64,000 bases of DNA from Lentisphaeria bacterium (GTDB lineage Bacteria; Verrucomicrobiota; Lentisphaeria; JABSQK01; JAWLHB01). The translations under genes were made by a program, and so were the position numbers. Shown one piece after another: positions 14,187 to 26,700 of the stretch. The stretch covers positions 1 through 64,000 of the forward strand of contig JAWLHB010000017.1 in assembly GCA_041690595.1 (NCBI GenBank), given 5' to 3'. Below the pieces are notes generated by a model that ran no database searches, was not told the origin of the DNA, and saw nothing but the letters and a program-made list of their open reading frames with translations. Within the stretch, counting starts at the first letter, position 1; every line of letters starts with the position of its first letter.

Positions 14187-14906
14187 TCAACTTCCGGCAG
14201 CACATTGACCGCTCGTCTGCAGTGGATGCGTAAGACCAACAGTCAACTCTCCCTTCCAGCTTCGCGAACCATGCGCCGCCAGCAGCTCCGCCGCACTCCC
14301 CCTCAAGACCTCTTCATGCAGCTTCGTCGCCTCACGTACGATGGCCACCATGGTCTCCCCCCCCAATTCCTCCACGATCTCCGTCAGCAGCTTGCTCATC
14401 CGATGTGGCGATTCGAACAGAAAGACCGTCCGGCTCGATGCAAAAAGCTGCCGAAGCATTGATCGGCGTTTGCCCGACTTCATCGGCAGAAAGCCGCCAA
14501 AAATGAAGTCCGAGATCGGAAATCCGCAGGCCACCACCGCGAAGGTGAGTGCCGATGCTCCCGGAATGATGATGGGCTCGATTCCCGCCTCCACGGCATC
14601 GCGCATCAGCAGGTAGCCAGGATCCGAAACAGCCGGTGTACCCGCATCCGTAAGTACCGCGATCCGCCGCCCCTGTTGCACCTGCTCCAGCAACTGATGC
14701 GTCTTGCCGTGCTCGTTATGGGAGTGGTAGCTCGTCGTGGCGCACGATATCTCAAAGTGAGTCAACAGCTTGCGCGCCCGCCGGGTATCCTCAGCCGCCA
14801 CCAGGTCCGCCTCCCGAAGCATGCGCAGCGCCCGCAGCGTTATATCTTCCAGATTCCCGATCGGACTGGCAATCAGCGCCAGCCATCCACCTGATCCATC
14901 ACACAT
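14187..14906 (-). CDS. rsmI: 16S rRNA (cytidine1402-2'-O)-methyltransferase
   Basis: SPIGNLEDITLRAL, AAEDTR, DAGTPAVSDPG, IPGASA, FESPHR, REATKLHEE. Confidence 0.95.
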   Translation of the reverse strand: MCDGSGGWLALIASPIGNLEDITLRALRMLREADLVAAEDTRRARKLLTHFEISCATTSYHSHNEHGKTHQLLEQVQQGRRIAVLTDAGTPAVSDPGYLLMRDAVEAGIEPIIIPGASALTFAVVACGFPISDFIFGGFLPMKSGKRRSMLRQLFASSRTVFLFESPHRMSKLLTEIVEELGGETMVAIVREATKLHEEVLRGSAAELLAAHGSRSWKGELTVGLTHPLQTSGQCAAGS

Positions 14907-14932: not shown

Positions 14933-16225
14933 TTACCCCATGTAGAGTCCGCCATCGACGGAGATCTCCTGCCCTGTCAGGTAGGAGGCGCCTGGAGAAA
15001 CCAGGAATGCCACCACATCCGCCACTTCATCAGGTCGTCCGAAGCGACGCACTGGGATCTCCCGCATCAGATCCCGCTTGCGCTTCTCATTGATCACGGA
15101 AGTCATCCGCGACTCGATGAAGCCGGGGCTCACGGCGTTAACCAGAACGCCGGACCCGGCCAGCTCTCGTGCGATCGCACGCGTAAAGCCGCCAATCCCT
15201 GCCTTCGCCGCGCTGTAATTGGCTCGACCAGCCCCGCCAAGCCTTCCGGCATCCGACGTAATATTCACAATCCGCCCGGCCCGCTGCCGTGCCATCAGCA
15301 GCCCCGCCGCACGCGTGACGTAGAATATCGACGATAAGTTCGTGTCGATGACGCTCCGCCACTGTTCGTCACTCATGTAGGAAAGCAGCGCGTCCTGAAG
15401 AATTCCCGCATTGTTCACCAGGACATCCAGCCGCCCGAAGCGTTCGTGAACCGCCTGCACCAGCCCCTTCGCCGCCGCCGAATCCGTCAGATCCGCGCTG
15501 AAGCTGCCAGCTTTAGCGCCCTGATCTTCCAGTTCACGGCAAAGTGTCTGTGCTGCCGTGTCCTGTCGGAAGTAATGCAGGGCGACGCTGAAACCATCAG
15601 CCGCCAGCCGTCGCGCAATGGCTTGACCGATATCACCAGTCGCACCCGTTACCAATGCCACCCGTCCAGTCGACTCACGTGGCGGTTCGGCCCAGACCGA
15701 GGCCGCTGGCTCCTCGGCAAGCGTCTCGGTCTCCTGGCGCGTCGCCAGGTAAGCCTCGACATCCTTTCTGTGGATGACTCCGCCACCGACAGCCTTCGCC
15801 ACTGCCTCCAGATCCACCTCGTGTTTCTTGGCAAAAGCCCGCGCCGCGGGGGCAACCCGCAGTCGTTCCGGCGGCGTCGTAGCCGGCGCTGACGCATCTG
15901 GCATCACCGCGCCCGGGTCGCCTCCGCCAGCCAGAAGAGCTGCGTTTTCCGATTCCACATTCGGCACTTTAGTGCCCTCGGCGCCCAATGCCGCCAGAAT
16001 GTAACCAACCGGAATGGTGCTTTTCTCCTCCGCATAAACAGCCAGCAGCGTACCGCTGAAGGGTGACTCATACTCCACCACGGTCTTGTCTGTGATTAGC
16101 TCCACCAGCGGCTGCCCCTTTTCCACCTTGGCCCCTACCCGCAACAACCAGCTGCCGATGGTTGCTTCATCCATATTCTCATAAAGCTTTGGCAGTCGAA
16201 AAAGCTCCGTTCGTTCCTCTGGCAT
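14933..16225 (-). CDS. fusion protein: lipoyl domain + peripheral subunit (E3)-binding domain + FabG-like SDR
   Basis: Lipoyl [37 protein letters not shown]...[46 protein letters not shown] before ATG 16225. Confidence 0.9.
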
Positions 16226-16268
16226 CACAACATGCTCCTCGTGTTTGATCTCTCCAGCGCAGCCATGC

Positions 16269-18008
16269 CTAATCCCGAGGCGCTGCTCGCAGATTCGGCG
16301 CGAACCCCAGCAGCACCGCTCCATTGCCACTTTCGCCGCGCAGATCCAGCAGAATCACGAACTCCTCCGGCAACAGGTGCGGAAAGCTCAAGATGGGAAA
16401 GCGGCTCACCAGTCGCTTGTCTGTGAAAATAAAATTCACCTGCTTGATCTGACAATATGCGATCAAGTGGCCGGAATTGAAAGGGAAGCCGCGCGGGATG
16501 AAATAGTCGCCTCCCGCATAGTAAGCCACGGCAGGATTCTCACACATGATGACTGGCGTCCGACCGCTGTGATAGTTGATCAACGTGGAATGCAGCGGTT
16601 CCTGCTCCGCCGGCACCAGAGCCTCTCCCTCTTCCGAGATCCAATCTGCCGCGACATGCACCGCCTGCCATTCGTCACGTTGTTTCTCCGACTTATACTG
16701 CCACAGCCGATCTGTACCATTGTAGAGACACACCAGCACAACGATCACCGTCGCCCCCTGCACCCCCTGCCAAACCCGACTACTGAAGCGCGTCCGAATC
16801 CACTTCCCGAAGCTCAATATGCCACACGCCGCCCACCCCAGAATCAACGGCGCCACCATCACGACATAACGGACATTCAACCACCCGATCGTCACCACCA
16901 TCAGCAAGAGGCATGACACTACCAGCCCCGCCAGCAGCAACTCCTCCCGCAGCCATCTGCCGTGGCGTACCCGCCAGATGATCACCCCGATTCCTATCAT
17001 GAGATACAGTGATCCCAGACCATTGATGATCTCGTTGATGATGGATCGATAGATATGAGCGATTCCAGTTGGCTCCCGCCTCAGAAATTCCGGGCTCAGC
17101 ATACGGTCAGGATCCGCGTGGCCAATGCGCAGCAGTTGCCTGTCCCAGTGCTGCCGCCAGTTGAAAAAGGCATACATCTCTACTCGCCGTATGGCATCGT
17201 CAGGCATGCCGGCCTCCCCGATCAACCCAAGTCGATCCAGCGGCCGCCCAAGACGATCCAACAATGCCGAATGTCGCATGTCCGTAACCGGGTACCCGGA
17301 GCAGCGATAGACATAGGCAATCCAAGGCGCCAGAACGATCGCCAGCAACATCGTCAGCAGCAGGGTCCGAAAAGGAAACGCCATCATCTTCGCGCCACCT
17401 TGCGGATGGCGCATCTCCGTAACCAGCAGGATCGCAAACGCCACCACGCCCACGCCAAGTCCCCCACCCCACGTCAGCGATAGTCCTGCCACACCAAGGC
17501 AGACCAACAGCGGCGGCCACCACTTTCGTTCCCGCAAAAACACGACCAGCCCATACGCTATCACCAGAAAATAGAAGATCTTGGCGCTCTCCCGAAGCCC
17601 CGTCGAACTATAAGATAACAGGCTGGGGAACAGGACCATCAACCAGACGCTCAATGCAGCGGCGGGGCGACCGAAAACCCGCTTCATCAACAGAAAAAGC
17701 GGAAAGACTGAAAGCGCCAGATAGAGCGACGATGTCGCCTTCGCCGCTACATATCCATCCATCCCCAGCCACACGAAGGGAGCACCACTCAGGATGAAGA
17801 GCGGCGGTATCCTCGGGTAAAAGGCCTGCGACCAGTTGCCGGCGCCAAGCTCACGCATCATCGGTGCATAGTACATCATCACATCGGGGAACGGCCGCTT
17901 GTCCAGCACCACCACAGGCAGGCAGATCAGAAAAACAATCCCCGCTGATAGCAGACAATACTGCCTGTCGCTCAACTTGCGGTATAGCTGCAGGCAGTAC
18001 TCAAGCAT
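16269..18008 (-). CDS. GT-C-fold membrane glycosyltransferase (GT39/ArnT/PMT_2-like)
   Basis: Many TM segments, Asp in the first outer loop (PDVMMYY), YPRIPPLF, soluble C-terminal domain. Located among glycosylation genes. Confidence 0.65.
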
Positions 18009-19626: not shown

Positions 19627-20448
19627 CTAACCTTTTCCAGGATAGCCGATTCCCCACTTCCGCAGGTACCGGAACCAGGAGGAAAGATGAATGCGAGTCG
19701 CCTTGCTCAGGTAAAACGCATACCACGGTCGCCGCGCGCTTTCCCGGTTGTGATTGTGCAGGATCTCCGCCGAAGGATTGTACATGACCTTCCAACCATG
19801 CTGGTGGAAGCGACGGCAGAGATCCGTATCCTCGAAGTACAGAAAGAACCCCTCGTCAAAGCCACCCGCCTCCCTCAGCGCGCTGCGACGCATGAACAGA
19901 AACGAACCCAGCAGCCAGTCCACCTCCTGCAACCTACCGAAATCTGCATCGCACATCTTGAACCGCGCCAGATCGCAACGCGCCAACCGAATGCGCCCCA
20001 GCGGAGTCCGCCTGTACACCGGCGTCATCACGCTGTGCCAGCGAAAGCAACTCCCTTGCACACTCAGGTCCGGATTCAACTGCCGTGGCCCAACTACACC
20101 GACCTCTGGATGTGCCTCCATGTACTTCCACAATACCTGAAACGTGTCCCGGCGGGCAAGCGTATCTGGATTCATCACGACCACGTACTTACCGCTGCTC
20201 TCTTCGATGCCGACATTGTTCCCGTGACCAAGACCCAGATTCTTGCTCAACTGCACAAAGCGCACCTCAGGAAAGCCCGACCGTAGATCAGCGCCGATGC
20301 TCTCGCCTGACGCATTGTCCACCACCACCACCTCTATCCCAAGTTGCCGCCCATCCGACACCTCCAAACCCGAATCAAGGATCGATCGCACGCAGCGCAG
20401 GGTGTCTGGCCCTGATTTGTAGTTGACAATGACGACCGAAATGTCCAT
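19627..20448 (-). CDS. glycosyltransferase family 2
   Basis: ISVVIVNY, VVVDNAS, NLGLGHGNN, MNPD, GGFDEGFFLYFEDTDLC. Confidence 0.92.
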   Translation of the reverse strand: MDISVVIVNYKSGPDTLRCVRSILDSGLEVSDGRQLGIEVVVVDNASGESIGADLRSGFPEVRFVQLSKNLGLGHGNNVGIEESSGKYVVVMNPDTLARRDTFQVLWKYMEAHPEVGVVGPRQLNPDLSVQGSCFRWHSVMTPVYRRTPLGRIRLARCDLARFKMCDADFGRLQEVDWLLGSFLFMRRSALREAGGFDEGFFLYFEDTDLCRRFHQHGWKVMYNPSAEILHNHNRESARRPWYAFYLSKATRIHLSSWFRYLRKWGIGYPGKG

Positions 20449-20575: not shown

Positions 20576-23500
20576 TTACTCGTTGTCCGTTACGATGATC
20601 GTTGCCACGCCAGGGGTATGATCAGTGGTGTTCGCGCGGATCACTACCGGCTTGTCTCCGTCCGCGATGATATCGTCAATCGCGTCGATCGCAAAAGTCG
20701 TCGACGACGCTGCGGGTGGTATGGTCACCCTCGACGGAATGTTAATCTCGGTGCTGTCCCCATTCGTGAGGATCACGGTAAGCGGTACCAGCGGCCGCGT
20801 CGAGCGGGTGATTGTGCCTATCGATACATTCGTCCCGCCGGCCTCCGAGACCATGCTGTTGGTCAGCGTCAGCGTCAGCTTCTGTTCGATGTACCCCTTC
20901 TCCAGCAAAATACTCCGTACACCCTCTAGTATCTCCTCCGGTGTCACGTTCGGCTTGTTAACCTCGATCGTCCGCCGCTCATCGATAGTTGCGCCCAGAC
21001 TGCCGAACTCCACGCGTTCATTCGGCATGTTACTGTCGAAGATGAAGCCATTCAGCTTGGTCGCCACGAAGCCGCGATTCATGCCAAACTTCAGGCCGGT
21101 CGAGTTGGTCGTTCCGAACAACGTACGGAATCGCCATGTATCCGCCAACAGGTCCTTTGGCGGCGTATCTACATAGTCTGCCGAGGCCAGCACCTGCACA
21201 TTGCTAGCGGCGGCCTTCGCCACAAACTTCTGCACGGCAATCCCACCAGCTTCCGTCATCGTCCCCCAGTGCTCTTCATGAAACACCGGTTCGCCATTGA
21301 GATTGCTGTAGTACATGATCGCCTTCATGTTCCGATTGCCGCGATCATCCACCATCATGCCGTTACGGTAGCTGTTCAACACGCTGCTGTCACCACGCCC
21401 CGAGGTCGACTGCTGTACCGAGTACACGATAGCATCCCGGCTATATGGATCCGTCCCACTGAGAAAGTGGAAATAGTTCGGCACGTTGTCAAGATTCTCG
21501 TCTCCATTCGGATTGATCACATCCAGATTCGCGTTATTGCCGAAGAAGAACCGCTCCCAATCATCAGGAAGTCCATCACCCGCACCACCGTTATCCGTAT
21601 CCGGTCGCCCTTGGATGGAAAGCTTCATGTGAGTAATCTCTCCGCGGCCAGATGCAGATGCATTGCGGACTGTCAGCTTCCATAGACCTCGCGACGGTTC
21701 CCCGTAATGCCGAACCGATCGGAATGGCCAGAAAGACAGGCCTGCTCCGTGTTGACCAACAGAGCCCGGAGCCGCTTCACTGAGTAGACTTGTCGTTCCA
21801 TTCGGGGATGTGAGCACAAATTCGTATTGGTGCCAGCTGTGATGTTCCGCACCAGGAAAGACAGACATCTCGATGACCACCTCGACGTGCTCCACGAAGA
21901 GATTGTCCATATTGTCAAACTCGAACTCATTTGCGATGGTTTCCTCAGGACCCACTAAAACCAGGTTCGAATCCGCCAACTCCAGGACTCTGCTGGTGCG
22001 CGGCCCTGTCGAAATAAAACTCTCCGCGCGATGCACCGCGGCCTCCGCATCCACACGCCCGAAACCATACAGATTGTTGTACCAATACGTGTGTCCGAAA
22101 AGCCCATCTTCAGTGATGTATTCATACGTCAGTCCATCTTCCCAGCCAGGGTGGCTCGGATCGTTCTGAACTGCCGTTGTCAGCAGGATATGCTGAACAT
22201 CCTGCCACGTCAGCGTAGGATTCGCCTGAAGCATCAAGGCCACCACTCCAGAGACAAGGGGGGCTGCCGAACTCGTACCGCCAAAAAACCAGTCATAATT
22301 GCCTGGATCGTTACCGGCGTCGTCCATGAAGTCGGTCGTCAGGATGCCGAGGTTGCCCCCGTTCGACGGGGCGTTGATCAGATTCGCGGTGCCTGGATTG
22401 GAATAGTATGCATGCGTACCAAAGTTGTTACTCGCAGCTACCGTAATGGTATAGGGTGAATTCGTATAGGTCTGGTAGTTCACATCGTCCCAATCCTGAT
22501 AGCCGTTGCCGCCGGCCCACACGATGATGTTGCCAAGACCATTCCGACCTGTCGTGATATCCTTGCGGAAAGCCGCGTGAACCGCCGGCGGCGCAAAATA
22601 CGGATTATGAAATCCTATGGAGTAGCCCCAGCTGTTATTGTAAATGTCCACCGCGGTGTTGAGCCGCTGCTGCGAATCCGCTTCCTGATCAGAATCTGCC
22701 TCAAAAAGACCATTTCTGAATACCTGATGGTTGATCATGACCGCTCGCGGCGCCACCCCGATGATGCCCACGCGATTGCCACCTATCGCACCAATGACGC
22801 CAGCTACCGCGGTTCCGTGATTGCCTGTCGACAACCTGCTGTCAATTACACCGCTGGTGCTCTGCGTATAGTCCTTGAAATACGCTCGCCGAACATTGTA
22901 CCACAAGTCCTCGTGCTCGGCCTCAATCTGATCGTCTACCACGGCAATGACTTCATTCGGTGACCCAGTGTACGTGTTCCAGATGCTCCCGATGTTGGCG
23001 TCCGCCCTGACGGCCCCGAACTCGCGCCCCGGGTTCCGCAGATGCCATTGATCACTGAACAGCGGATCGTTAATCACAAAGCCGCTGCTGGTGCTGTTGC
23101 CCGTGTTTATATGGTTCGGGTACGCGTAATCAACCTCTGCATTCTCAGCGATGTCGTTGGCAAGACTCAATACCTTGAAGGCATCCGCCACTGTGTAGAT
23201 GCGAATATAATCTTCAATGCTGCTGATCCGGCCCTTGCCCAACCCATAGCTTTCGGCAACTTTCGCTATACGGCTCTCATTCCAGTCCTCCGGGAAATGA
23301 ACGATGATCTCGCCAGTAGTGATCAACCGCACTTCGCCACCAAGCTTCAGGACCGGCACCACCTTACTGCCGCCCGTCTTCGCCGCAAGCTCCTGCCGTG
23401 ATGAGGTCGTGCTCGCCTTCGCGTCCGGCACCGTCACCACAAGGTACTTCGACGTGGCCACCAGTACGTTCGAATCGCCACTGCTGACGCCAAGGCGCCC

Positions 23501-23692
23501 ACCTTCTGGAGCACCTTCGTCCATCGAGTCGCCAAGGACGGCCACTTCGTCCGCCGCAATCGATACCTGCAGCTTCTGCTTGCCATAACGAATGTAGCTC
23601 TCGGACCCGGCTTCCAGGGACATGCCCACCACCAGCCCCGCCATCAGGCAGAGACGGCGGATCCAGCGGTTCAGACCAAGCGTATCTTTCAT
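20576..23692 (-). CDS. secreted S8 (kexin/furin-like) serine protease with P domain, Ca-binding-like motif, unknown shared domain and C-terminal Calx-beta-like domain
   Basis: Signal peptide, prodomain, triad IAVVDD / NHGTAVAG / GGTSSAAP, oxyanion WAGGNG, P domain (VEHVEV...GEPSRGLWKLTV), GDGLPDDWE, terminal IDAIDDIIADGD...IVTDNE. Start 23692 has a GGAGG RBS. Confidence 0.92.
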   Translation of the reverse strand: MKDTLGLNRWIRRLCLMAGLVVGMSLEAGSESYIRYGKQKLQVSIAADEVAVLGDSMDEGAPEGGRLGVSSGDSNVLVATSKYLVVTVPDAKASTTSSRQELAAKTGGSKVVPVLKLGGEVRLITTGEIIVHFPEDWNESRIAKVAESYGLGKGRISSIEDYIRIYTVADAFKVLSLANDIAENAEVDYAYPNHINTGNSTSSGFVINDPLFSDQWHLRNPGREFGAVRADANIGSIWNTYTGSPNEVIAVVDDQIEAEHEDLWYNVRRAYFKDYTQSTSGVIDSRLSTGNHGTAVAGVIGAIGGNRVGIIGVAPRAVMINHQVFRNGLFEADSDQEADSQQRLNTAVDIYNNSWGYSIGFHNPYFAPPAVHAAFRKDITTGRNGLGNIIVWAGGNGYQDWDDVNYQTYTNSPYTITVAASNNFGTHAYYSNPGTANLINAPSNGGNLGILTTDFMDDAGNDPGNYDWFFGGTSSAAPLVSGVVALMLQANPTLTWQDVQHILLTTAVQNDPSHPGWEDGLTYEYITEDGLFGHTYWYNNLYGFGRVDAEAAVHRAESFISTGPRTSRVLELADSNLVLVGPEETIANEFEFDNMDNLFVEHVEVVIEMSVFPGAEHHSWHQYEFVLTSPNGTTSLLSEAAPGSVGQHGAGLSFWPFRSVRHYGEPSRGLWKLTVRNASASGRGEITHMKLSIQGRPDTDNGGAGDGLPDDWERFFFGNNANLDVINPNGDENLDNVPNYFHFLSGTDPYSRDAIVYSVQQSTSGRGDSSVLNSYRNGMMVDDRGNRNMKAIMYYSNLNGEPVFHEEHWGTMTEAGGIAVQKFVAKAAASNVQVLASADYVDTPPKDLLADTWRFRTLFGTTNSTGLKFGMNRGFVATKLNGFIFDSNMPNERVEFGSLGATIDERRTIEVNKPNVTPEEILEGVRSILLEKGYIEQKLTLTLTNSMVSEAGGTNVSIGTITRSTRPLVPLTVILTNGDSTEINIPSRVTIPPAASSTTFAIDAIDDIIADGDKPVVIRANTTDHTPGVATIIVTDNE

Positions 23693-23751
23693 TAGTTTCC
23701 TATCCTCCAGTTGTGAGTCGAAAAGCTTAAGTGTTCTCTCGCGGCCTTCAT

Positions 23752-23760
23752 AGTATAGCA
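23752..23760 (-). promoter_or_regulatory. possible extended -10 promoter for the protease
   Basis: Minus strand TGCTATACT, between the giant gene stop and the protease start. Confidence 0.35.
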
Positions 23761-23769
23761 CCTTCGTCA

Positions 23770-26700
23770 TCAGTTGCTCGGTTTGTAGCCATTAACATTC
23801 AGCAACTGCAACAAATCCTGCACCGCATCATTCGCGGACTTGCCGCCAATGATCGAATCGATGGTCATGCCACCGTCCAGTGTCAGCTTGATCGTGTACA
23901 TCGACCAGGTGTTATCCGAACGATCCATCCGGAACTCATGGCCGCCAAGGCTCGGCGCAAGCTCAACCGTGTGGCTGCCACCGATTCCGGTGTACACGCT
24001 TGCCGCACCTTCCAGAATGCGCCACTTCTCGCTGGTGGCACTCAGGGTCGACGAACCGAGAACCTGGTAGCGGTGCTGCTGGAAGACCTTCTGCGTATTC
24101 AGCATGTCGCCCTGCGACCAGTCCTCCATCCGGTACCAACGATTGTTACCGGTTGCACCATAGAAGATAGCCATGACTGTCTGGCGCTGCGTGTCCACAA
24201 CCAGGAAGCCATTCTTGTTCACCGCACTCAATCGGCCACCACCGATATCGTTGCCGGTTACCGACAGACGATACACGGCCGCACAATCTTCCGTGCTCGC
24301 CGACGGTTCAACCGTGCCTTCATAGCCGACTGGCGAGATTGCCGTCAGTGCGAGGCTGGTACTGCCCATGTTCACATAGCTGTGCCCTTGCAGCATCTCA
24401 CCGAAGACCCGCACCGCGTTGTTGATATCCCACTTGTCGACGACCGTCGTCAGGCTGTCGGAGAAGCGGGCGGTAATCGCTACCTGGCGGTGGAAGCCTG
24501 GTGCCAACTCGATGCTGTCCAGCTTGCCGCTGAACGACTGCACCACATCCTCCCGCTTCCCGCTGGACAACCGGATGCCCTGGCTCACCCCACCATACAG
24601 GTAGCGGAATGTCTGCACATCTCCATCCACTGATGTGCTCGTCGCCACATCGTACAGGCTCCGCGATCCAATGTCCGTGGTGCTGATCTTCACATCCGAC
24701 CAGTCTTCCACGCGATACACATTGCGACCGTTTTCGCTGCTTGTCAGCAACGCCGATACGCGGTCATACTGACGATCCACCAGCAGCCAACCACGGGTGC
24801 GACTGCGCTTGTAGCTGTTGTTGCCAAAGTCCGTCATGTCCAGATCGAGGCTATAGACCACCACCGTCGAGTCGAATTCCGCTACGGTCAGATCCACCTG
24901 CCGGCTTTCGCTCGCGCCCGTGCTCACGTTCAGGAACGAGATCGTGTCCTGGTAGCTGCCGAAGGCGTAGCTCTCCGCTGCATCGTTGATCGTCACCGCA
25001 ACGGTAGCGGTCTGCCCGCCTTCCAGCACGCCCGTCTCCGGCGTTACGTCCAGCCAGTCCGCCTGCTTCACCGCACGCCAGGCAAGCTCGCCTTCGCCGG
25101 CATTATGCAGCGTGTACGTCTTTGTCGACGGCGTGAACGGTCCACCCGTCATACCCGCGGATTGCAGACTCTCCGTCTCCGCCACGATCAACAGCCCGAG
25201 TGGCGACGCGGAGGTCAACGTCAAGTTTACGTTGCAACTCGTTGTTCCCTGATTGTTCGTCGAATTCGTGAACGTCACGCCGCTCGTATGAACGCACGGA
25301 TATACTCCATCCGGCGAACGCAGCAGACGCGCACTGCCATTTACCGACACCACCACCGTCGTTGACTGCCCAGGCTGCAACTCTCCATTCACCGTCGAGA
25401 GCGTTACCCACGAATGGTTGCGGCTCACGTTGAAGAACAGAGGCATGCTGCCCGTATTCTTCAGAACGTACGACTGCGAGCTCGGCAGGAACGGACCGCC
25501 CTGTACGCCAGTCGGCGCAAAGTCCCCAACCGGCGATACCTGCAGATTCCCGCCATTCAGGCCCGTTATCGTCAGTTCCACATTGCGTTCGGTATCTCCC
25601 AGCCCCGGACTGCCGGCAGTCACGTTGCGGAACCGGATCAACTCTGGGTAGACGCCGGCGCTGAGCTGTTCCGCCCCTGTGCCAATGCTTACCGTCACCT
25701 CGGCCGATTCATCGGGGGCCAGTGTGCCCGAATCGATGCTGAAGATCAGCCATGGCGACTGCGACGCAGCTTCTACGGCGAAGCTGAGCTGGGCCTTACC
25801 CGTATTCTTGACCGTGTAGACCTTCGCCGCCGGCGTGAACGGACCGAAACGACGGCCGCTCGAGATGAAGCTCTCTACAGGTGTCACCACCAGCACGCCA
25901 GGATCACCCGTGATGTTCAAGGTTACCTGACGCTCCGGCACTCCACCTAGACCATTCGCCGTATTGAAGAAGCGGATTGTCTCATGATACGAGCCAACAG
26001 GCAGCTGCTGCGCAAACCGGTTGAAGATGACCTCCACTTCAACGGACGCACCCTTCGGCAGCACACCACTGCGAGCCGACAAGCTCAGCCAGGAGACAGT
26101 GTTCACCATCTGCGTCGACCAGGAAATCTCGTCGTCACCTATATTGGTTATGGTATACGTGGACGACCCTGGTTCTATTGCAGTGCCCTGCAGCGCCGTG
26201 CGAACGATGGCATCAGCCGGTGTCACATCCATGATGCCGCCAGTGCCCGTGGTCACGTTCAACGTGATCAGACGCACTGAATCACCATAGCCACTCGCTC
26301 CGAACGTCACATTCTGGATCAGCAACGAGTCATTGTAGATCCCAACCGGCTTGATTGTCGCCTCCTCATTGACCGTCACGGTCACCGTTGTCTCTTCGCC
26401 CGGCAACAGTGTGCCCGACGTCGTCGACAGCGTTACCCAGCTCGAATTCTGCTGCAGCGACACCTGCCAGTCCAGAACCTGCTCGCCAATATTCTTCAGC
26501 ACGTAGGCACCTGCCTCGCTTCCAAGCACACTCCGATCGTACTGCGGCGTATTGATCACAATCGACGACGTCGGCGTCACGTTCAGAATGCCAGGATTCC
26601 CTGTCACCGTAATGCTCGCACTACGCGTGGTGGTGCCGAATCCGTCGTTCACATTCACGAACTGCAGCAGATTCTGATACTGCCCCACCGCCAGACGGCG

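Follow-up and report, generated by a model that had tools for sequence, protein, structure and literature searches.

The window analysed in this work, a stretch of 64,000 nucleotides (positions 1 to 64,000 of contig JAWLHB010000017.1, here C17) from a Lentisphaeria genome of 8.1 Mb and 97% completeness (GCA_041690595.1), contains at 14933..16225 of the reverse strand a gene that joins a lipoyl domain and a peripheral-subunit-binding domain (PSBD) to a FabG-like ketoreductase (KR) of the short-chain dehydrogenase/reductase (SDR) type. Lipoyl swinging arms are parts of five enzyme systems and, to our knowledge, the arm of the 2-oxoacid dehydrogenases always passes its cargo to an E2 core. Here, a conserved family annotated everywhere as "FabG" carries the arm and a docking domain on a fatty-acid-type reductase, and travels with a ketosynthase (KS) and an E1 that has no E2. 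The relatives of the gene suggest an undescribed pathway by which 2-oxoacid carbon enters a small fatty-acid/polyketide-type synthase without an E2 enzyme. We propose, with a probability of about one half, that the fusion is the arm-and-reductase subunit of a type-II module resembling fatty-acid synthases (FAS) and polyketide synthases (PKS), devoid of E2 core and primed from 2-oxoacids, in which the arm would prime the KS and the KR would reduce the product bound to acyl carrier protein (ACP).

The gene runs from an ATG at 16225 to a stop codon at 14933-14935 and is translated into 430 amino acids without internal stops. The ATG comes 43 nucleotides past the stop of the upstream gene, which ends at 16269, and a Shine-Dalgarno sequence, GAGGAG (16235..16240, same strand), is seen directly in the sequence 9 nucleotides upstream of it. 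A GTG at 16330 was discarded as alternative start, as it would run into the upstream gene. In addition, the homologues begin 8-10 residues ahead of a conserved block, [12 protein letters not shown], so the coordinates 14933-16225 proposed in an initial annotation of the window are right.

All the domains of the protein are given with their positions on the reverse strand. The lipoyl domain (residues 9-80, 15986..16201) was recognized by Pfam as Biotin_lipoyl PF00364 with 46.5 bits (cut-off 22.1), it aligns with E2 lipoyl domains of the PDB, and its block has a predicted local distance difference test score (pLDDT) of 94-98 in an AlphaFold2 model built from 21 family sequences (mean pLDDT 89). 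Lys47, the predicted lipoylation site (codon 16085..16087), stands in a TDKT turn, and D46 and K47 are invariant in the 21 aligned members, as are P126, A128, H152 and D155 of the PSBD and the SDR tetrad. After a linker rich in Ala, Pro and Gly (residues 81-124, 15854..15985; pLDDT below 50 over residues 104-118) comes the PSBD (residues 125-167, 15725..15853), with the family motif P126-A-A128...H152..D155. E3_binding PF02817 scored 19.2 bits on residues 125-157, under its cut-off of 23.7. However, we take the PSBD to be real, because a PDB sequence search aligned E2p 9y7v_D (87.2 bits) without a break over residues 10-181, lipoyl domain and PSBD included, 22 of the 120 homologues among the matches listed have a precomputed PF02817, and the model predicts helices at residues 126-134, 139-146 and 153-167 (block pLDDT 90-96). 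Other PDB matches of the N-terminal part were 3duf_I and the E3-binding protein (E3BP) chains 1zy8_K and 6h60_A. Two or three PSBD copies in tandem occur in the family members P0009 and P0004, which would fit the docking of more than one partner. A second linker (residues 168-187, 15665..15724; pLDDT below 50 over residues 169-182) leads to the reductase. The whole model shows a beta-barrel (residues 7-81), a three-helix PSBD (126-167) and a Rossmann-type SDR (189-425), with a disordered linker between each domain and the next.

The N-terminal lipoyl domain with its Lys in a DK turn, the flexible Ala/Pro linker and the PSBD are shared with the E2 of pyruvate dehydrogenase (PDH) and branched-chain 2-oxoacid dehydrogenase (BCKDH; 9y7v, 3duf). 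However, the Pfam search gave no match to the PF00198 acyltransferase core in the protein, which has the SDR in its place; its PSBD has an invariant His152/Asp155 motif of its own, and neither E1 nor E3 is encoded in the window.

The SDR (residues 188-430, 14936..15664) matched adh_short_C2 with 214 bits over residues 196-427. Its top PDB match was the Thermus FabG 2ph3_A (237 bits), and the nearest solved structures, also 4rzh and 1i01, are genuine FabGs. The Gly-rich dinucleotide motif (T193-G200, 15626-15649; G194 and G200 invariant) and the catalytic tetrad, formed by N296 (15338-15340), S324 (15254-15256), Y337 (15215-15217) and K341 (15203-15205), are complete. Nevertheless, the protein differs from FabG in several respects: it scored 284.7 bits with the NCBIfam equivalog model TIGR01830, just short of the cut-off of 297.75, and passed a looser FabG subfamily model, NF009466 (257.9 against 222 bits); it bears a lipoyl-PSBD head of 187 residues; its Gly motif is TGATGDIG, without the Arg of TGxSRGIG, a residue with a role in NADPH binding; and its catalytic Ser is followed by the signature S-D-A-G, which is S-V-V-G in housekeeping FabG. 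The gene also lies outside the fab cluster, between a GT-C-like gene and an rsmI-like gene. The canonical FabG of this genome is encoded at C9:169426-170139 (334.6 bits, above the TIGR01830 cut-off) with ACP (C9:170277-170480) and FabF beside it, in a fab cluster spanning C9:169426-171820. Therefore, the fusion is a specialised paralogue of FabG and not the housekeeping enzyme. Lacking the core, it is not an E2, and its score, its context and its Gly motif set it apart from the FabG equivalog; an unnamed family is the best place for it. The initial annotation had described an E2-like head on a ketoreductase body, with the lipoyl Lys at 16085-16087, a PSBD at about 15745-15860 and complete FabG-like motifs ([17 protein letters not shown]). 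This architecture is real and conserved, the Lys codon agrees, the motifs are found in the translation, and the PDB alignment and predicted helices place the PSBD at 15725..15853.

The breadth of the family was studied in a collection of 5.8 billion proteins, in which matches were grouped into 90%-identity clusters and the best 120, query included, were listed. All 120 contain lipoyl and SDR domains (410-542 amino acids), so that at least 119 other protein clusters have the same architecture; clustering at 50% gave seven full-length representatives among the best 150. The named homologues among the matches listed are all called "3-oxoacyl-ACP reductase FabG" (NCBI and JGI names), and come from metagenome-assembled genomes (MAGs) of Lentisphaerae, Lentisphaeria and Victivallales and one of Rhodothermales, the class names of the relatives resting on these few. 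A search of genome contigs with the family alignment found two fusions among 80 loci (L071 and L072, in Lentisphaerales and Lentisphaeria MAGs), the rest being swamped by ordinary FabGs. Additionally, linker 2 is bridged by a 318-nucleotide contig of a public sediment run, which matches 15512-15829 with five differences and no gap; the contigs that covered the gene were of low depth and from one sediment study, none of them spanning it whole. The recurrence in clusters from independent assemblies and the contig that bridges the junction rule out an assembly artefact or a one-off chimera, and answer the initial annotation, which had proposed an architecture search and read mapping over the junction. 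A full-text literature search, with subscription journals mostly outside its coverage, turned up no publication on lipoyl/PSBD-SDR fusions, nor any on ketosynthases primed through a lipoyl group, and in the accessible part of the one candidate preprint the word 'lipoyl' appears in the reference list only. This agrees with the initial annotation, which knew of no characterised protein with this architecture.

The N-terminal 182 residues also served as query against 401 genomes of the phylum, of which the 30 best loci were examined. In 20 of these 30 a lipoyl-PSBD is followed by a FabG-like SDR, fused in one frame in eight and as two adjacent genes in twelve. The fused frames (421-473 amino acids) belong to the window genome, to one genome of its order and to six of the family here called f7, and the split loci are spread over seven other families. 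In two of the latter, in genomes G262 (L046:10022-11443, forward strand) and G392 (L047:8138-9397, forward strand), both halves are in the same frame with a stop and a short spacer between them, and the fused form could arise through loss of a single stop. Stand-alone lipoyl-PSBD proteins of Lentisphaeria have 164-178 amino acids and are 52-61% identical to the head of the fusion. In the SDR tree the fused and split reductases form one clade (Shimodaira-Hasegawa-like approximate likelihood ratio test, SH-aLRT, 92; fused forms alone, 100), apart from the own FabG of the genome. The S-D-A-G signature after the catalytic Ser is found in 7/7 fused and 5/7 split SDRs. In a further genome (G007, L153:8638-11278, reverse strand, = G007:C3), a lipoyl-PSBD lies in a single frame of 840 amino acids with a GspD-type secretin, directly downstream of the gene for the giant protein described below and with no adjacent SDR. 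This frame may come from a missing stop or be a real fusion, and was not taken as the latter.

Up to 20 kb were then fetched around 20 of the lipoyl-PSBD loci, and their open reading frames were clustered and annotated with Pfam and NCBIfam. The order of the split-form cluster is giant protein, lipoyl-PSBD, KR, KS, inactive KS partner, E1 alpha, E1 beta, family 2 glycosyltransferase (GT2), ACP and hydrolase. The Pfam content of one of them, L049, comprises KS, a KS-like protein, E1_dh, Transket_pyr/C, GT2, PP-binding and hydrolase, with no PF00198 E2 core. The KS, its partner and the E1 genes are present in seven of the twelve split-form loci. The FabF-like KS keeps its Cys-His-His triad intact, and the KS-like partner lacks the Cys and both His. 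The alpha/beta hydrolase at the cluster end has "hydrolase 2, exosortase A-associated" as its closest model, with a score of 150.6 bits that does not reach the cut-off. The best non-FabF matches of the KS, the small inactive subunit and the orphan ACP described below are AmcF, AmcG and AmcB of the cispentacin set (NF058662, NF058659 and NF058660), but all the scores are below the cut-offs (196.5 against 325, 36.5 against 80 and 43.5 against 80 bits, respectively), and we know of no lipoyl or E1 component in the cispentacin pathway. The giant protein of the split-form clusters (1900-2230 amino acids) is secreted and belongs to no family.

Parts of this cluster are dispersed in the window genome over C17, C15, C29, C40, C12 and C57. 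The KS (642 amino acids) is encoded at C15:47978-49903 (L060:8976-10904, reverse strand of L060), and over its C-terminal 240 residues, approximately, it matches the N-terminal half of the inactive partner (AmcG-like, 36.5 bits), which is a separate gene in the split-form clusters. Both gene pairs of the pathway, lipoyl-PSBD/KR and KS/partner, are fused in Lentisphaeria. The giant protein (C40:14075-20269, = L061:9073-15270, reverse strand of L061) has 2065 amino acids, with a signal peptide and no hydrophobic or transmembrane segment. No Pfam or NCBIfam family was found in it, and the leads are 3-keto-disaccharide-hydrolase-like lectin folds, all weak (ESM Atlas 0.94-0.95, with recognition under the usual level; Pfam 18.6 bits, below cut-off). 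C12 contains a lone AmcB-like ACP (43.5 bits, below cut-off). C57 has a trio (L070:3144-6053, reverse strand) of a hydrolase-1-like protein, a 409-amino-acid protein with no assignment and a hydrolase-2-like protein, whose hydrolases resemble the exosortase-A-associated pair (TIGR03100, 62.6 bits; TIGR03101, 118.9 bits; both below cut-off). In the fused-type genomes, a KS of 640-667 amino acids follows the fusion in three of seven loci, and in G400 the giant gene comes directly after it.

The phyletic pattern links the same genes. The giant protein is present in 23 of the 401 genomes, among which are all the 20 with lipoyl-PSBD and SDR, and these 23 are all among the 25 genomes with a KS match of at least 210 bits. 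Thus the 20 genomes with the lipoyl-PSBD/SDR pair carry, without exception, the giant protein and the special KS. Within family f7, lipoyl-PSBD/SDR, KS and giant protein are found in the same 6 of 14 genomes.

With respect to E1, the window genome encodes on C29 an orphan alpha/beta pair, whose surroundings contain neither E2 nor E3 nor lipoyl genes. Its subunits, closest to the pyruvate/acetoin type, are 47.5 and 50.8% identical to the cluster E1 (47-51% for the cluster E1s), and in the tree the beta subunit falls with those of the clusters and not with the four other E1 betas of the genome (SH-aLRT 93). The nearest models are of PDH type, both below cut-off (309.2 against 393.85 and 315.3 against 321 bits for alpha and beta). 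No E2, lipoyl or E3 gene was found in the locus (9-20 kb) of the best E1 alpha/beta pair of the window genome nor in those of the four other fused-type genomes covered. In addition, no E2 core was found in genomes G277 (92% complete) and G307 (89% complete), which keep the fusion, the KS and the giant protein, and also the E1 in G277, where it was searched. A HI0933-like flavoprotein located just downstream of the C29 E1 beta was considered as an alternative dihydrolipoyl oxidase and rejected, since it is absent beside E1 in the four other fused-type loci and in 20 cluster loci. The window genome has three PF00198 matches (on C39, C43 and C42) and three E3s, and encodes LipA together with two enzymes of LplA/LipB type. 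The searches for E1 (tblastn), E3, E2 core and PP-binding gave no match on C17, in agreement with the initial annotation, which had seen no E1, E3 or ACP gene nearby.

C42 also encodes (C42:8992-12312, = L067:5993-9313, forward strand) a single polypeptide of 1106 amino acids made of E1 alpha, E1 beta, lipoyl domain and FabH (ketoacyl-ACP synthase III, KAS III), without E2 core. Its FabH part exceeds the cut-off of PRK09352 (250.8 bits), and its lipoyl region also touches the acetoin E2 model PRK14875. As in the fusion, a lipoyl arm is carried on a condensing or FAS enzyme without E2 core; however, the arm is there on E1 and KAS III, whereas that of the window protein is on a KR, with a PSBD, and its partner is a FabF-type KS with an inactive subunit. 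This polypeptide is a parallel to the fusion, the second example in the genome of a FAS enzyme connected to a lipoyl arm.

From the presence of the domains and the co-occurrence of the genes, which are shown, we infer the following steps. The orphan E1 alpha/beta of C29 would dock on the PSBD, decarboxylate a 2-oxoacid and reductively acylate the lipoyl group of Lys47. The swinging arm would then pass the acyl group to the Cys of the KS, directly or via the hydrolase-fold proteins, without participation of E2 or coenzyme A (CoA). Afterwards, the KS would condense this primer with malonyl-ACP, and the fused KR would reduce the resulting 3-oxoacyl-ACP to 3-hydroxyacyl-ACP. Finally, E3 would re-oxidise the dihydrolipoyl arm at the same PSBD, and the NADH of this step could pay for that of the KR, giving a redox-neutral module. 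FabG enzymes are tetramers, and the fusion would put four arms on such a tetramer, so the reductase could stand in for the E2 core as oligomeric hub. The product would probably be a short 3-hydroxyacyl group for a surface glycan or for the secreted giant protein, this being the least certain step and one to which we give less than an even chance. The complete scheme, that is, CoA- and E2-independent priming of the KS by an arm on a KR tetramer, balanced by E3, with a hydroxyacyl decoration tied to the giant secreted protein in Lentisphaeria and neighbouring classes, is put forward tentatively, at somewhat under even odds. In the quinocarcin-type route, PDH-like E1 and lipoyl components (QncN, QncL and QncM) reportedly deliver a two-carbon acyl unit to an assembly-line ACP; that route is said to keep an E2-type acyltransferase and to have no arm fused to a ketoreductase. 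If the proposed mechanism is true, it would be a new coupling of central 2-oxoacid metabolism to acyl-chain building without CoA, it would give a function to the orphan E1 pair, and it would indicate that a secreted protein of some 2000 residues, of no known family, is associated with a new surface modification. Automatic annotation conceals this architecture, and in metabolic models of these organisms the protein counts as a second "FabG", which it probably is not.

Several data weigh against this proposal. The lipoylation of K47, the docking of E1, the transfer from arm to KS and the substrate of the KR are all predicted from sequence. As the parts of the window genome lie on different contigs, their linkage rests on the relatives. 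The co-occurring genomes, which involve ten GTDB families, are kin and not independent, and the KS threshold of 210 bits was picked after seeing the gap in the scores. The E1 and SDR trees come from quick searches and have long branches, their support (SH-aLRT 93 and 92) being moderate. The best E1 beta of the f7 genomes is 41-43% identical to the C29 protein, below the values of the cluster E1s, and may not be its orthologue. No E3 was detected in G277 at E<=1e-60, owing to an incomplete assembly or to another re-oxidation route. The three canonical E2s of the window genome and its several other E1 pairs mean that the PSBD could dock ordinary complexes. GcvH is present in the five fused-type genomes tested, and therefore the lipoylation enzymes say nothing specific about the window protein. 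Lastly, the Arg at the TGxSRGIG position is found in none of the 21 aligned members of the fused family, and the split-form SDRs have Arg (7/8) or Lys (1/8); the two forms may consequently differ in cofactor use.

The initial annotation had suggested that a thiamine pyrophosphate-dependent E1 loads the arm and that the SDR uses lipoamide as an ACP-like carrier. The first part remains plausible, given the E1 pair of the split-form clusters, which have no E2, and the grouping of the orphan C29 pair with it. According to the second, E1 or KS would put a 3-oxoacyl group on dihydrolipoamide, an ACP surrogate, and the fused SDR would reduce it in cis. The retention of the arm-KR fusion in 8 of 20 genomes favours delivery in cis, no ACP is encoded in the window, and the fused clade has a Gly/cofactor motif changed with respect to FabG and the S-D-A-G pocket signature. 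However, the gene set has its own KS with a complete Cys-His-His triad, the split-form clusters contain a dedicated ACP, as may the window genome in the orphan AmcB-like ACP of C12, and the nearest matches of the SDR are genuine FabGs, which depend on ACP. Moreover, E1 chemistry gives a plain acyl thioester, and a 3-oxoacyl group would come only from a 2,4-dioxoacid. In view of the KS and the dedicated ACP, a KR acting on ACP-bound 3-oxoacyl groups, with the arm delivering the primer only, is simpler, and we regard lipoamide as carrier for the SDR as unlikely.

The head could also be an adaptor that merely anchors the reductase to E3 or to complexes of the PDH or 2-oxoglutarate dehydrogenase (OGDH) type, for instance for local NADH, with no transfer to the KS. 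E3BP/protein X is such an adaptor, which performs no acyltransferase reaction itself, and by sequence its didomains (1zy8_K, 6h60_A) are like the lipoyl-PSBD of the fusion; the tandem PSBDs of some members and the three E2s and three E3s of the genome agree with docking of this kind. E3BP, however, keeps an E2-like inner core, whereas the body of the window protein is an unrelated, complete ketoreductase. The adaptor explanation accounts neither for the strict co-occurrence with the special KS and the giant protein nor for the E1 without E2 in the clusters; the fusion is kept in G277 and G307, in which no E2 core was found, and the invariance of the lipoyl Lys suggests that the arm is functional. 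These observations make it very unlikely.

To about the same low degree we credit a catabolic module of acetoin type, in which the SDR would form an alpha-hydroxyketone or diketone by oxidation of a diol or hydroxy compound, E1 would cleave this product onto the arm and the acyl group would enter metabolism. Butanediol dehydrogenase and acetoin dehydrogenase are a precedent for diol oxidation followed by E1 cleavage onto a lipoyl arm. The PDH-type affinity of the E1 subunits, with scores below the cut-offs, the acetoin E2 model touched by the E1-lipoyl-FabH relative and the alpha/beta hydrolases of the cluster, which recall AcoC, a hydrolase-fold protein, are in line with it. Butanediol-dehydrogenase (BudC) models also recognize the SDR (194.5 bits), but FabG models are far above them (284.7 bits). 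Furthermore, no CoA-acyltransferase is present, and the KS, ACP and glycosyltransferases of the clusters point to biosynthesis. Finally, that the gene is an artefact, a one-off chimera or a housekeeping FabG with a decorative tail, as the database names and the NF009466 score might indicate, is refuted by the 120 clusters of common architecture, the bridging contig, the canonical FabG on C9 and the invariant K47.

As for the surroundings of the fusion, the initial annotation had linked it to the neighbouring glycan genes of the window, a link that was not sustained. The only window neighbour common to another genome is the rsmI-like methyltransferase gene (14187-14906, reverse strand), located 26 nucleotides after the fusion and adjacent also in G352 (L045). 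The GT2 of the window (19627-20448) shares 26-30% identity with that of the clusters, and a copy on C10 shares 42%. We consequently do not propose the glycan genes adjacent to the fusion as its partners, and a relation with glycans is suggested only by the GT2, GT4 and Wzy genes of the split-form clusters.

Further along the window, 23770-63999 of the reverse strand is a single open frame of at least 13,409 amino acids, cut by the edge of the window. Dozens of BACON_2 and HYDIN/ASH-type Ig-like repeats were identified in the 9,999 amino acids scanned. The stop of this frame overlaps the start of a gene (20576-23770) encoding a subtilase/P-domain protein of 1064 amino acids.

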